This document shows, piece by piece, positions 41,444 through 45,123 of a DNA stretch of 64,000 nt (its first letter is position 1; every line of letters begins with the position of its first letter). Both the position numbers and the translations under genes were made by a program. Under the pieces are notes generated by a model. It did not search any database, was not told where the DNA came from, and worked only from the letters and a program-made list of their open reading frames with translations. This DNA is from an uncultured delta proteobacterium (lineage in GTDB: Bacteria > Desulfobacterota > Binatia > UBA9968): the NCBI GenBank assembly GCA_963804165.1, contig CAWDPO010000014.1:99918-163917 (forward strand). Direction: 5' to 3'.

Positions 41444-42339
41444 GCGTGATTAAAATTCTCTATCGGGACGTGGACCGGACGCCTTATCTTTACACCGTCA
41501 AGCATGCGGCGGCGCGGTACGGATTGGAGCTGCAATTTGAAAAGGCGACAAGTCCCGAGTTCGGCGAATTCCTCGAAGCCGGCTCTGTGGATTTTCTCGC
41601 CGAGAATTATTGGGGACTGCAAAGCTTCCGCGCGCGAGGCGTGCCCTTTATCAGCGTGGCGACCGCGGTGACTTGGCTCAATGAAAAGCTGTTCGTTCAT
41701 CCCAGTATCGTCAACATCGAGGATCTTCGCGGCAAGAAGTTCGCGATCCGCGGCGTCGGACCGTCGCAGTTGATTCCCGGGCTGTGGCTCAAGGATCACG
41801 GTCTCGGCGCGGACGTGCAGCGGATCGTTTATTCTGAAAAAGAAGTCGGACGATGGGGCCACTGGAAAAAAGTTGTGAGCGGCGAGTGCCACGGTTGTTT
41901 CGTGACCAACTTCTATCAAAACGAGCCGGCGGCAGCCGGGTTGAAACTTGTTCCGGTCGAGCCTTATGGGTTCATCGGTAACGTCACATTGACGACGACG
42001 GAAGGATTCATCGAACGCCGGCGCAGTGAGGTGCAGCATCTGGTGACCGCGGCCTTCGAAGCGTCTCAACTCTTCAAGCACGATGCCGCTACGGCGTTGG
42101 CGATCTGCAAGAAAGAACCGAGCGAGCTGCTCAAGATCGAGAACGAAAAACAGCTGGAGTTCACCTATCAGATTCTCCGCGACGAGCTTTCCGAAGCGCC
42201 GCTCCCATCGCCGGAAGGAATCTCGAACACGATGAGGATGCGGCTCGACAGCTCGCCGGAGTTGACGAGCTTCAATCCGGTGGTGATGTGGGATTTTAGT
42301 TTTGCCCGGGAAGCGATGAAGCGGCGAGGTGGCGAATAA
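41440..42339 (+). CDS. SsuA/NMT1-fold protein without a signal peptide
   Basis: IKILYRD..TPYL, DLRGKKFAI, FNPVVMWDFSF; ATGA-coupled to hyuB copy 2. Confidence 0.72.
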   Translation: MSVIKILYRDVDRTPYLYTVKHAAARYGLELQFEKATSPEFGEFLEAGSVDFLAENYWGLQSFRARGVPFISVATAVTWLNEKLFVHPSIVNIEDLRGKKFAIRGVGPSQLIPGLWLKDHGLGADVQRIVYSEKEVGRWGHWKKVVSGECHGCFVTNFYQNEPAAAGLKLVPVEPYGFIGNVTLTTTEGFIERRRSEVQHLVTAAFEASQLFKHDAATALAICKKEPSELLKIENEKQLEFTYQILRDELSEAPLPSPEGISNTMRMRLDSSPELTSFNPVVMWDFSFAREAMKRRGGE

Positions 42340-42408
42340 CGCAACCACGAAGGACCCGAGATGCACGCATCCCAACTTCCTGCCGCCCGAGACGAGACGG
42401 TGTCTCGA

Positions 42409-42507
42409 CGTCATCCTGAGGCTCTTCGGCTTCGCTCAGGATAAACTCCGCCGAAGGATCTCGTCTTCGTGAGCCGCAGGAAATGTGAGATTCTTCGCTA
42501 ACGCTCA
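42409..42507. repeat. REP-like cluster; the last unit is interrupted by the IS
   Basis: GTCATCCTGAG..CTCAGGATA..GAAGGATCT, then GATTCTTCGCTAACGCTCA, which continues as GAATGAC at 43825. Confidence 0.8.
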
Positions 42508-42584
42508 TCTATGAAAGCTTTGTCAAGGTATCTGTTAGTCACATATTGTTTTTTCTTCTCATGGTTTCGAATACACCAGTACTT

Positions 42585-42713
42585 ATCGTCCGTGGCAAAG
42601 CGTACCCGATGTTATCGGACTCATCTATTCGCCGTCTAAAGCGGCAGAGAAAAATGCCACAGGGCTGTCGCAATCAGAATTCGGGTCTCAGTGGACCCAT
42701 GAGCCGCGCGCGC
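42585..42713 (-). ncRNA. Candidate bridge/seek RNA of the IS1111-type element
   Basis: Minus-strand stems GGGTC/GACCC, GTGGCA/TGCCAC, GCCG/CGGC and CCGAT/ATCGG; unpaired segments GCTCA and ATTCTGA match the target and ATAGATGA matches the donor junction. Ends approximate. Confidence 0.72.
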
Positions 42714-43754
42714 TTAGCCCTGCGTGGACGACATCGGTTCGCGATAGCTTTCTCCTTTTTTCAACATCCAGAAACTCGCCTCCGCCAAGTGTCGGGCCAC
42801 GGCCACAATCGCTTTGCCGTGCCCCCGTCTGGCTTTGACATTTTCATACAGCCGGGCAACGTGTCGGTACTCGCAGCGCTCGCGGTTGAGCACCGCGCTA
42901 TTGGCCGCTTCGGTAAAGGCCCACTTCAGATAAAGATTCACATCCTTTCTCACCCGCCCGTAGCGCACCTTGCCGCCACTGGAGTTCTCCCGGGGTACCA
43001 GCCCCGCGTAACTCGCCAGCTGCTCGGCTCGGCCAAAGCGCTCGATCGTACCGATCTCAGTCCAGATCACCACCGCCAACATCTCACCCACTCCTGGCTC
43101 GCTCTGCAAATAAGTCGTCTCGGCACAGGGAGCAAAGGCTTGGCGCATTTGGCCTTCAATGGTCTTGAGATTGGCCTGCACATGGTCGAGCTCGTCGAGC
43201 ATCAATCGCAGCGCTTGTTGGGTGTGCGGTGGCAGCTTGGAGCAAAGCTCTTCGATGATCTGTCGGCCCCGCTTGCCAAAGGCGTCGCTGACGCCGTCGA
43301 CCTTGAGCCCGTACTTCTCCAGAGTGGCGTGAATACGGTTCTTGAACTGGGTTCTCTGCTTGCTGAGCACCATGCGGGTGCGCGGCAGCTCGCGGGCATC
43401 ACGAACCGCAGACGGCGCAATCCACACCGTCGGCAGGGTTCCGACTCTCTGCAAACGATTCATTCCCTTCGCATCGAGCTTGTCGCTCTTGTTCACGCTG
43501 CCGATCATCAGCTTGGCCAGTCGTGCGTTGACCAGTTGCGGCGATCCTTTCCCCGCCTCGATCTCATCGACTACCCAGTACCAGTTGCCCACGGTCTCAA
43601 CCGCCACCGGGGTTCCCGGACTCCACTTGTTGGTGAAGTTCTTAATCGTTCCTCGACTATGCGCCAGTTTACACTCAAAGAGCTTCTGGCCTTGGTCATT
43701 TTCTACCCGCGCCCAGGTGTAATGCTTATGAACATCCAATGCGACGTATTCCAT
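42714..43754 (-). CDS. IS110-family DEDD transposase/recombinase
   Basis: ALDVHK, AVETVG, KSDKLDA (DEDD), PGVGE..A, YAGLVPRENSSGG (catalytic Ser region), AIVAVARHL. Confidence 0.95.
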   Translation of the reverse strand: MEYVALDVHKHYTWARVENDQGQKLFECKLAHSRGTIKNFTNKWSPGTPVAVETVGNWYWVVDEIEAGKGSPQLVNARLAKLMIGSVNKSDKLDAKGMNRLQRVGTLPTVWIAPSAVRDARELPRTRMVLSKQRTQFKNRIHATLEKYGLKVDGVSDAFGKRGRQIIEELCSKLPPHTQQALRLMLDELDHVQANLKTIEGQMRQAFAPCAETTYLQSEPGVGEMLAVVIWTEIGTIERFGRAEQLASYAGLVPRENSSGGKVRYGRVRKDVNLYLKWAFTEAANSAVLNRERCEYRHVARLYENVKARRGHGKAIVAVARHLAEASFWMLKKGESYREPMSSTQG

Positions 43755-43968
43755 TTGCGATTTCCTCCTCCAGCCGTCAGTCTATCTACCGACGCTGCGG
43801 ATTTCATCGCTTTCATATTAATCAGAATGACATTTATGGCGGGGTTTGCGATTACGACACAATCGCGACGCGGCAGAGGAAAGAGGGCGGACTTCTAACC
43901 GCGAGTAACGCAAAAAATAATCGTCGAGTGGTTCGTAATGAAACAAATGCTCGAACCTAGGAGGCCAA

Positions 43969-45123
43969 ATGGCTAAGAGATCTCCAATCGTAATCCAGTT
44001 TGTCGTGGCGGTGTTTAACCTTGTCATAGGAGCGGCGTTCTTAGCGGATTGTCGGGATGCGCTGGCGCAAGGCGCTGCGCCTAAAGCCGCAGCGCGCCCT
44101 ACCGACGACCTCGTTGCCAAGGCAAAAAAGGAGGGTGAGGTTTCAGTCGCAGTCGTCTCACAAATCGGTCCGGTGGCGCGAGACCTCGAACGGGCTTTCA
44201 AAAAAAGATTCGGCTTGGAGAGTCTCCAAATGAATTTCGGCGTCGGCGACCAGCCCGCGCAATTCGCCCAACTCAAGGCCAACCTATCAGCAGGAATGGC
44301 TCCTGCGTTCGATGCTTTGACCGGGACGGACGAAGAAATCCTCCAAGTTGTGGCGGCGGGACACACTGCCAAAACCCAGGATTGGGAAAAACTGTTGGCC
44401 GAAGTTAATCCGCTGATTCGATCCGGCGCCGCGCGCCCGGCGCAAGTGAGCACAACTATATTTTCCGGCGAAGCGTTTATTTGGGGCAACCGGCTCAAGG
44501 CATTGATCTACAATCCGAAGCTGATTTCGGAAAATGAGCTTCCGAAAACCCACGCCGATCTCGCCGCCCCGAAGTTCAAGGGGAAATATGTCGTCGCGCC
44601 CTGGACCGACGAGTGGGAGATGGGGGTCTTGGTTTATAAGGACAAAAGCAAGTGGCTCGAGATCTTGGACCAGATCGGTCAAAACGCGCGCGGCGTCGTT
44701 CATCTGACGGCCGCGACGGGGCGCTTGCTGCTGGGCGAGTTTCCATTTTTTCCAGGCAACGAATATTACTCCTTCACCGCCAAGGCAAAGGATCCGAAGG
44801 CGCCCATCGCGTACCATTTTTGGAGCGACTATACCGGATTGACCCGGCTTTACTATATCGTGCCGGCTAAAGCGCGGCATCCGGCGGCGGGCACGCTATT
44901 CGCGTTGTGGATGACAACGCCCGAAGCCCAGGCCATTTACCAACCGGTCGCGCACATCACCAATGTCTCCTATGGCCAGAGCGATCACGATAAAGGCATC
45001 AGAGCGGCTATCGATAAAGTAAAGACGCCGGTGATCTCCTACTGGGACAGCGAAGAGAATCTCACAGCATTCAAGTGGTACAGCAGCGACGAAGGACGCA
45101 AATATCTCAGCGAGTTGGTGTAG
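43969..45123 (+). CDS. ABC extracellular solute-binding protein
   Basis: Signal peptide, AKAKKEGEV, YNPKLI..ELPKT..DL..PKFKGK, ARHPAAG.LF..W. Confidence 0.85.
   Translation: MAKRSPIVIQFVVAVFNLVIGAAFLADCRDALAQGAAPKAAARPTDDLVAKAKKEGEVSVAVVSQIGPVARDLERAFKKRFGLESLQMNFGVGDQPAQFAQLKANLSAGMAPAFDALTGTDEEILQVVAAGHTAKTQDWEKLLAEVNPLIRSGAARPAQVSTTIFSGEAFIWGNRLKALIYNPKLISENELPKTHADLAAPKFKGKYVVAPWTDEWEMGVLVYKDKSKWLEILDQIGQNARGVVHLTAATGRLLLGEFPFFPGNEYYSFTAKAKDPKAPIAYHFWSDYTGLTRLYYIVPAKARHPAAGTLFALWMTTPEAQAIYQPVAHITNVSYGQSDHDKGIRAAIDKVKTPVISYWDSEENLTAFKWYSSDEGRKYLSELV

Follow-up and report, generated by a model that had tools for sequence, protein, structure and literature searches.

An IS1111-type insertion sequence in REP-like palindromes of a Binatia genome and the structured RNA predicted to guide it

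RNA-guided recombinases from the groups IS110 and IS1111 are under development as break-free genome-writing tools. To our knowledge, nearly all mechanistic work has been carried out on enzymes of the IS110 group, namely IS621 and ISCro4. The insertion sequence (IS) described here, from a very large, uncharacterised soil clade, is located in a stretch of 64,000 nucleotides, hereafter called the window, from the genome of an uncultured bacterium of the Binatia (GenBank assembly GCA_963804165.1, contig CAWDPO010000014.1, hereafter C14, positions 99918-163917; the assembly, 81 % complete, comprises 46 contigs with 7.5 Mb in total). It is very probably an RNA-guided element of the IS1111 type, with a structured RNA at the 3' end of its transposase gene that carries the guides mapped below. 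RNA-guided elements of the IS110/IS1111 kind were already described in 2024, and the window element adds a member. The anatomy of the element, its copy number, its specificity for site and orientation, and the covariation within the RNA and between guides and DNA were all established by comparison of sequences.

In members of the IS1111 group, an RNA encoded downstream of the gene co-purifies with the transposase and is reprogrammable, its complement to the top strand lies 5' of its complement to the bottom strand, and natural retargeting has occurred between ISEc11 and ISXne4 (Siddiquee 2024). Bridge RNAs were predicted in 93 % of IS1111 elements and donor-binding bases were placed in a multi-loop for many of them, according to the sections of Durrant 2024 consulted. 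ISPa11 of Pseudomonas aeruginosa, a member of the IS1111 group, resembles the window element in its REP (repetitive extragenic palindromic) target, its downstream RNA and its guide order (Siddiquee 2024). It differs in host phylum and in the palindrome itself, the two elements having been compared by description alone. The RNA of ISPa11 has a short form of 96 nt and a long form of 172 nt in the consulted part of a review table, and the element is listed with RNA donor matches in the consulted part of Durrant 2024. ISEc11 (Escherichia coli/Shigella, IS1111 group) shares with the window element a junction promoter, subterminal repeats and the lack of a target duplication; its 3' non-coding region is essential, its RNA co-purifies with the transposase and its target guides are reprogrammable (Siddiquee 2024). 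Its 12-bp target is non-palindromic, however, and its function was established by experiment, whereas the evidence on the window element is comparative throughout.

The IS110-group enzymes of solved structure, IS621 and ISCro4, have in common with the window element a DEDD recombinase with a C-terminal serine domain, a shared core of 2 nt and two guides (the second donor guide of the window element being a candidate) which read both strands of each DNA, and IS621 likewise inserts in REP elements, as stated in the part of the literature consulted. In contrast to the window element, their RNA precedes the gene, being encoded upstream at the 5' end, with reversed guide order, and both of their loops are simple internal loops, whereas the putative donor guides of the window element would lie in a three-way junction. 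Long subterminal repeats are absent from IS621. IS4321 and IS5075 (IS1111 group, enterobacterial plasmids) have the same family annotation and can be aligned over their full length (97 % of the query), but with 22 % identity, and their target, in the consulted part of the source, is the inverted repeats of Tn21-type transposons.

The transposase gene of the window element (42714..43754, stop codon 42714-42716; this and all other element features are on the minus strand) codes for 346 amino acids. The protein has a DEDD (RuvC-like) N-terminal domain (PF01548, DEDD_Tnp_IS110, E 4.9e-13) and a C-terminal domain (PF02371, Transposase_20, E 2.3e-21), and scores 233.6 bits with NCBIfam NF033542, 'IS110 family RNA-guided transposase', of which the cut-off is 140. 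The C-terminal half (residues 192-337) matches PDB chains of IS621 and ISCro4 (E 3.6e-12). Residues D7, E53, D91, D94 and G260, with the catalytic assignment taken from the literature, are invariant when the window protein is aligned with seven relatives (51-78 % identity), and the GL-P----SG pattern (GLVPRENSSG) is retained in these eight sequences. The length and the motif are those which define the IS1111 group (330-350 amino acids, GL-P----S(t)G), and the architecture of the element supports its membership of this group within the IS110 family. At least 6,246 related proteins were found at E ≤1e-20 among 8,000 candidates scored, none in the protein collection having a name more specific than 'transposase'. 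Relatives from species genomes were mostly in soil metagenome-assembled genomes labelled Candidatus Binatia and Nitrospirota, and the best plasmid-borne relative in the plasmid collection has 32.5 % identity.

The insertion sequence proper comprises 1315 bp (42508..43822) and is flanked by CA dinucleotides (TG in the sense of the transposase, hereafter IS sense) at 42506-42507 and 43823-43824, one of the two being also the element's own; TCA is read at 42505-42507 and 43822-43824. The ends are shared by ten full-length copies in the host genome, which form two subfamilies (82 % alike) and are accompanied by one truncated copy, and similarity among the copies ends at 42508 and 43821/43822 in every case. 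These copies, together with uninterrupted paralogous palindromes, confirm the element boundaries proposed in an earlier sequence-only reading of the window, and the strings quoted there were all found in place, among them GCTCA (42700-42704), ATTCTGA (42674-42680) and ATAGATGA (42621-42628) on the minus strand. Identity to the window copy is 99.7-100 % in five copies, 96.6 % in one and about 82 % in four, hereafter subfamily B. The window copy is 100 % identical over 1314 bp to a copy at a different site and three further copies differ from it by 1-4 bases, which points to recent transposition. The transposase frame is open in eight of the ten full-length copies and broken in two. The element in the window is, on its sequence, intact and recently active; the open frame, the DEDD residues and GL-P----SG motif invariant among the eight aligned proteins and the five copies of at least 99.7 % identity at different sites all agree with its previous description as intact. 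The truncated copy (L010/L012, G000:C22:28900-29687) is rearranged, with element bases 294-386 fused to 616-1314, both pieces 100 % identical, and a contig of one DNA sequencing run (X1) links 42537 to 42978 on opposite strands.

The nine copies for which both flanks are available are inserted at an identical point and in identical orientation in one family of REP-like palindromes, of the form GTCAT[T/G/C]CTGAGC...GCGAAG[A/C/G]ATCTC in the transposase sense, the stem base T, G or C having A, C or G as its respective counterpart on the opposite arm. In addition, 121 unoccupied copies of the palindrome are found in the host genome, for example on contigs C6, C9, C11 and C17, with the T allele in 41, the G allele in 22 and the C allele in 58. 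In the window, the right half of the palindrome including one copy of the core is at 42487..42507 and the left half, GTCATTC followed by the core TG, at 43823..43831 (both in IS sense), as identified from the flanks of the copies and the uninterrupted palindromes. The rejoined flanks equal uninterrupted palindromes, and insertion has thus occurred without target duplication; two unoccupied palindromes are identical to the rejoined site over 28 nt, which confirms the target previously deduced by removing the element.

Directly left of the element, at 42408-42466 on the plus strand, is a second palindrome unit with the C allele (GTCATCCTGAGG...GAAGGATCTC). It is opposite in orientation to the unit which hosts the element, and the insertion therefore sits in an inverted repeat pair resembling bacterial interspersed mosaic elements (BIMEs) or REP doublets forming hairpins (REPINs). 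A seeming empty site, in which 42481 and 43821 are linked with 24 other letters between them, was rejected since it is another copy of the palindrome, and neither a circle junction nor an empty site for the window locus was seen in the contigs of one DNA run. The left flanks of three metagenomic relatives (L112, L126 and L127) resemble the T-arm of a tRNA by eye, and the flank after the element ends with CCACCA in L112 and L127. A tRNA target for some relatives was nevertheless rejected, as ARAGORN found no tRNA in any of five intact loci or in any of five after scripted removal of the element; for L126, the run on the element-containing form alone likewise gave no tRNA.

Homologous loci were collected from species genomes (21) and from metagenomes (80 retained of 550 relatives), and the RNA region was located with an anchor pattern in 77 of 111 loci. 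Both flanks could be assigned in 61 of these 77 elements. The shared core had earlier been proposed to be TGA/TCA; the homologues reduce it to the 2 nt TG (CA on the plus strand). Within the host palindrome the bases which could belong to either junction are indeed TGA, but in relatives inserted in other sequences (L029/L030 and L037 types) only TG is common to both junctions, the right flanks starting, for example, with TGG or TGT. The first base of the right flank after TG (RF+1) is variable (A in 41, G in 17, C in 2 and T in 1) and is read by the guide with Watson-Crick pairing in 59 of 61 elements, and the A next to TG on the left, with which the element starts, is invariant.

The RNA is numbered here from 42737, so that RNA position p corresponds to window coordinate 42738-p. 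Its 5' target guide, GCGGCTCA (RNA 31-38, 42700..42707), is complementary to the IS-sense top strand over TG and the 6 nt to its right. Watson-Crick pairing in the homologues was observed in 59/61, 53/60, 50/60, 38/60, 36/60 and 35/60 elements at RF+1 to RF+6, respectively, and falls to background (19/60) at RF+7. The 3' target guide, ATTCTGA (RNA 58-64, 42674..42680), equals the 4 nt left of the core, TG and the first base of the element, and would pair with the bottom strand, being identical to the IS-sense top strand. Identity at the four left flank positions LF-4 to LF-1 was 54/57, 57/57, 54/57 and 56/57. The recognised site is thus 12 bp (4 + TG + 6), and the top-strand complement lies 5' of the bottom-strand match, as in the IS1111 group. 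Counted on distinct combinations of guide and flank, the cognate 5' guides matched at 4.87 of 7 positions and the non-cognate ones at 2.66 (64 of the 77 elements, after exclusion of those with a right flank below 7 nt or a guide without a CA end), and the corresponding values for the 3' guides were 4.30 and 1.94 of 6 (66 elements); the observed total was reached in 0/10,000 shuffles in both cases. Distinct guides number 37 for the 5' strand of the loop and 23 for the 3' strand. When mutual information was computed without bias between every RNA column and every position of the flanks and ends, the target guide positions were top-ranked.

In the window sequence alone, the guide matches are only marginally beyond chance, and they are judged to be real because of the covariation in homologues. 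The same covariation supports the internal loop, situated between helices P2 and P3, whose two sides had been read as matching opposite strands and opposite halves of the target, core included. The two subfamilies in the host genome provide a further comparison: the 3' target guide of subfamily A, AUUCUGA, occurs with the T allele in five of five cases and that of subfamily B, AUGCUGA, with the G allele in four of four, the difference being U to G at RNA position 60. No element of this genome has a guide for the C allele, the commonest one; relatives elsewhere have the C-allele guide AUCCUGA (for example L050, L064 and L072). Family, anatomy and covariation, the last based on about 60 independent homologues and on natural one-base retargeting within one genome, thus bear out the proposal of an IS1111-type element with a 3' non-coding RNA which has two opposite-strand target guides and a donor guide.

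The structured RNA (seekRNA or bridge RNA) is predicted to comprise 132 nt (42606..42737) in the form of a three-way junction, on the evidence of covariation, folding and a covariance model. It overlaps the stop codon and starts 21 nt ahead of it, so that the final seven sense codons of the transposase gene also make up the first 21 nt of the RNA; at the left end of the element there are just 67 nt before the ATG. Sixty-six distinct RNA segments were aligned (alignment A2), after exclusion of duplicates, of segments containing N and of those near contig ends, and RNAalifold together with explicit pair counts yielded five helices. P0 (RNA 1-11 with 122-132) is a long-range closing stem and P1 (RNA 14-21 with 73-80) follows it, the 5' strands of both being within the open reading frame (ORF). 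P2 (RNA 26-29 with 66-69) is invariant, covariation speaking neither for nor against it. P3 (RNA 40-44 with 51-55) is the apical hairpin of the target domain, GGGTC (42694-42698) with GACCC (42683-42687), and Pd (RNA 93-96 with 104-107) is the donor-domain hairpin GCCG...CGGC (42631..42645), which separates the two donor-guide strands in the junction.

The five helices are paired in 94.9 % of cells in the 66 sequences, compared with 83.3 % in shuffles and 30-40 % with slid partners; 16 of the 31 pairs show compensatory change and 0/500 shuffles reach any of five measures. In P3, three of five pairs are compensatory in the 66 sequences and five of five in the 86 distinct matches of the covariance model, and subfamily B has GAGCC/GGCTC, equivalent to two compensatory pairs. 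Pd is paired in 99.6 % of cells and nearly invariant, and hence contributes little covariation evidence. The covariance model (R1), built from the trimmed alignment, detected the RNA in 96 of the 100 homologous loci searched (L129 was left out), the four misses being a relative of 25 % identity and three loci truncated where their contigs end. In the alignment of the 86 distinct R1 matches, which is fitted to R1 and thus biased towards it, compensatory change is seen in 25 of 31 pairs. With the boundaries given by P0, the window RNA folds alone into the three-way junction (-51.5 kcal/mol, z -2.36), 3 of 200 shuffles being as good. The transposase C-terminal peptide (42714-42737) varies between clades with retention of P0/P1 pairing.

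The fold suggested for the second domain by the sequence-only reading did not survive this comparison. Its closing stem, GTGGCA/TGCCAC, is paired in only 50.3 % of cells in the 66 homologues, and the 209-nt stretch proposed for folding is no better than shuffles (z +0.41), as is a 127-nt version (z -0.65); in the minimum free energy folds of both, the guides are paired together and the GTGGCA/TGCCAC stem is used. A local hairpin CCGAT/ATCGG was also rejected, with 77.3 % pairing compared with 90 % for the competing long-range stem. An orphan RNA without transposase was likewise rejected, since all ten blastn matches of the 132-nt RNA are inside the ten full-length copies. Two homologous loci, L046 and L058, have the target domain of the RNA alone (model positions 18-76). 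In L046 the left part of the element (transposase 5' coding region and left end) comes next in reverse complement, pointing to an inverted or nested copy; L058 was seen only as an equivalent partial R1 match.

The putative 3' donor guide, ATAGATGA (RNA 110-117, 42621..42628), equals the last 5 nt of the right end of the element (RE), TG and the first base of the element. The 8-nt donor match of this string had been noted before, and its identity with the tip is maintained across 61 homologues: 60/61, 61/61, 61/61, 60/61 and 60/61 at RE-5 to RE-1. RE-4 (T/G) and RE-2 (G/T) vary in step with the RNA in 61/61 and 60/61 elements. Three tip classes (TAGA, GATA and GAGA) match their guides with two exceptions in 60, and a fourth, TACA, was seen by eye in L044. 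A natural donor-guide mutant exists in the host genome: L009 (G000:C17:395920-397233), of subfamily B, has a one-base insertion in the 3' donor guide (ATAG-C-ATGA) and an open transposase frame.

The sequence-only reading had found no second donor guide. A candidate 5' donor guide, CAUUUUUCUC (RNA 82-91, 42647..42656), is however present in the strand 5' of Pd, with covariation at two positions, and is probably such a guide, split by two unpaired bases. It would pair with the G of the core and with bases +1, +4, +5, +7, +8 and +9 of the element (IS), and be unpaired at IS +2 and +3 and, in the window copy, at +6 as one extra mismatch. In the close clade, pairing was observed in 36/38 elements at the core G, 38/38 at +1, 0/38 at +2, 4/38 at +3 and 37/38 at +4, and in 27+4 of 38 at +5, 29+2 at +6, 33 at +7 and 38 at +8. 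The distant clade has a contiguous CCAUCA opposite TGATGG, from the core T to IS base +4, with Watson-Crick pairs in 18, 19, 19, 18, 13 and 15 of 19 elements and in addition 1 and 2 G-U pairs at the last two positions. A contiguous 5' donor guide in the core register of the distant clade was rejected for the close clade, where it pairs in only 0-5 of 38 elements at IS +1 to +3. The left end is one base longer in the clade of the window element, and the pairing there stays in register with the subterminal repeat.

For the repeat-anchored analysis, the donor strand and the left end were assigned in 60 elements, whereas the assignment failed in 38 others. At two positions, located 3-4 nt ahead of the inverted repeat, three and four types of Watson-Crick pair occur; these positions are paired in 63 of 82 cases compared with 46.1 expected (0/20,000 clade-stratified shuffles, from which one more combination, L102 with a doubtful left end, was removed), and with the clades taken singly the observed value is attained in 4 and 32 of 20,000 shuffles. 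Covariation with RNA column 100 was also seen for IS base +5 (A, T or C), 31 of 38 cells being pairable, with a mutual information of 0.63 compared with a phylogenetic background of about 0.45-0.5 in unrelated columns (0/20,000 shuffles). In two held-out relatives, L090 and L092, G replaces A at IS +4 and C replaces U in the RNA. Both donor guides would lie in the three-way junction and not in an internal loop, in agreement with the multi-loop remark in the consulted part of Durrant 2024.

The ends of the element contain a perfect 9-bp subterminal inverted repeat, GCTTTCATA on the right (42510..42518) and TATGAAAGC on the left (43809..43817), both in IS sense. The repeat can also be taken as 11 matches in 13 positions, and in the distant clade it attains as much as 14 bp; the IS1111 group has 7-17 bp, usually 11-13. 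The extensions beyond the repeats total 9 bp including one core copy, either 7+2 (TG left) or 6+3 (TG split), and are 7 and 3 bp in ISEc11; for the group, the consulted part of Siddiquee 2024 gives a left extension of 7 bp and a right one of 3 bp, in occasional cases 6 and 3. Scripted joining of the ends creates a predicted promoter from a -35 hexamer TTGACA at the right end (42521..42526) and a -10 hexamer TAATAT at the left end (43815..43820), separated by 17 nt and located 55 nt upstream of the ribosome-binding site GGAGGAGG and the ATG. The hexamers are predicted to act only once the ends are joined; a search of the integrated copy, over 42400-43950, gave no promoter-like site on the minus strand. 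The -35/-10 pair of the junction form is present in 54 of 61 homologues, and the arrangement matches the junction promoters of ISEc11 and IS621 (Siddiquee 2024; ISPpu9 paper). The guide-covarying IS base +5 is the third base of the -10 hexamer (TAATAT/TATTAT/TACTAT, 43815-43820), so that one base would serve both promoter and guide pairing.

In the mechanism proposed, the element would excise as a circle, as judged from its family, and the joining of its ends would build the promoter, which would drive a single transcript containing the transposase mRNA and, at its 3' end, the 132-nt RNA. In one arm of the RNA, the 5' strand of the internal loop would pair with the top strand of TG and 6 nt of the target, and the 3' strand of the same loop with the bottom strand of 4 nt and TG. 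The single strands of the junction would present the donor guides, the 8-nt 3' guide reading the right tip and TG and the split 5' guide probably reading the left tip. The RNA-bound transposase would then recombine the circle junction with the 12-bp REP-like site at the shared TG, in one orientation. By analogy with published relatives, the RNA is presumably made, bound by the protein and required, and experiments with ISEc11 and IS621 suggest that the guides would be reprogrammable.

Some observations weigh against an RNA-guided element with these guides. The boundaries of the homologues were set by a rule, an inverted repeat plus TG at a fixed distance, which presupposes the TG core, and the homologues are mutually related, so that shuffle tests overstate significance. 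IS4321, the single named IS1111-group member found, is distant for a placement in the group. An Rfam scan of 42300-44100 on both strands gave no match at E up to 10. Of 23 listed sequencing runs, four were compared (three RNA, one DNA); the contigs of the three RNA runs, which are uninformative on expression either way, match portions of the coding region with 90-99 % likeness and leave 42556-43127 uncovered. The 5' guide of the window copy pairs with only TG and 3 nt of its present flank (5 nt), compared with TG and 5-6 nt (7-8 nt) in sister copies. For the donor, tip covariation involves only three or four classes, largely at clade level, and thus few independent events. It is nevertheless scarcely credible that the matches are due to chance or to a trapped, degenerate host palindrome with no guiding role. 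Such an origin could be imagined because the target repeat occurs more than 120 times, matches of 5-8 nt among many registers are only marginally improbable in one sequence and the stretch first proposed folds no better than shuffles, but the halves in the RNA are swapped in order and on opposite strands, unlike a copy of the palindrome, and relatives in unrelated sequences have correspondingly different guides, with which this explanation is already contradicted. It is also very unlikely that the window copy is a dead relic, intact in sequence but immobile. The lack of a circle junction and of an empty site in the one DNA run, the match of the flank to the 5' guide at only 3 of 7 positions beyond the core, and the two broken and one truncated copies would be in keeping with this, whereas the complete identity over 1314 bp with a copy at another site and the three copies within 1-4 bases imply recent transposition.

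How the donor is recognised is a separate matter. We tentatively propose, as a reading that may well turn out either way, that the RNA is a full bispecific bridge RNA, a three-way junction which starts within the ORF and has the 8-nt 3' donor guide and the split, repeat-anchored 5' donor guide. The sister subfamilies in one genome would then, as a corollary, partition the REP alleles by single-base guide changes. It is rather unlikely, but considerably less so than the two explanations above, that the RNA seeks only the target, the protein recognising the ends by means of the subterminal repeats and the donor-like strings being scaffold that resembles the tips by descent. An 82-nt RNA of ISEc11, described with target matches alone, supports transposition better than the long form (Siddiquee 2024), and in the present data donor-tip classes are few and mostly follow the clades, the 5' donor guide has two fixed mismatches and neither RE-2 nor RE-4 ever changes alone within a clade. 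An RNA that seeks only the target is less easily reconciled with a 3' donor guide which matches the tip at 5 of 5 positions, both variable ones included, in about 60 of 61 elements, with two positions of the 5' candidate which have three to four Watson-Crick pair types above stratified shuffles, or with the paired change in L090 and L092.

Compared with the described systems, three features are possibly new: a closing stem that lies within the ORF, a candidate 5' donor guide that is split and repeat-anchored, and the partitioning of REP alleles by coexisting subfamilies. The ORF-internal stem and the split donor guide may already appear in figures or supplements of Siddiquee 2024 and Durrant 2024; candidate published sources of junction-borne donor guides are Supplementary Figs 6-7 of the former and Extended Data Fig. 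10c and Supplementary Table 5 of the latter. The RNA extends into the terminal part of the transposase ORF, so that searches of the 'non-coding region' which begin after the stop codon miss the closing stem. With the covariance model R1 and the guide map, the positions for mutation are known exactly, which enables a direct test of RNA-read donors in the IS1111 group, for which the host genome offers a natural experiment, with two active subfamilies, one guide base apart, on matching target alleles. If the bispecific reading is true, donor choice in the IS1111 group would also be RNA-programmable, contrary to the seekRNA view, in which the protein recognises the ends, and the obligatory unpaired dinucleotide at IS +2 and +3 would be a mechanistic difference from IS621.

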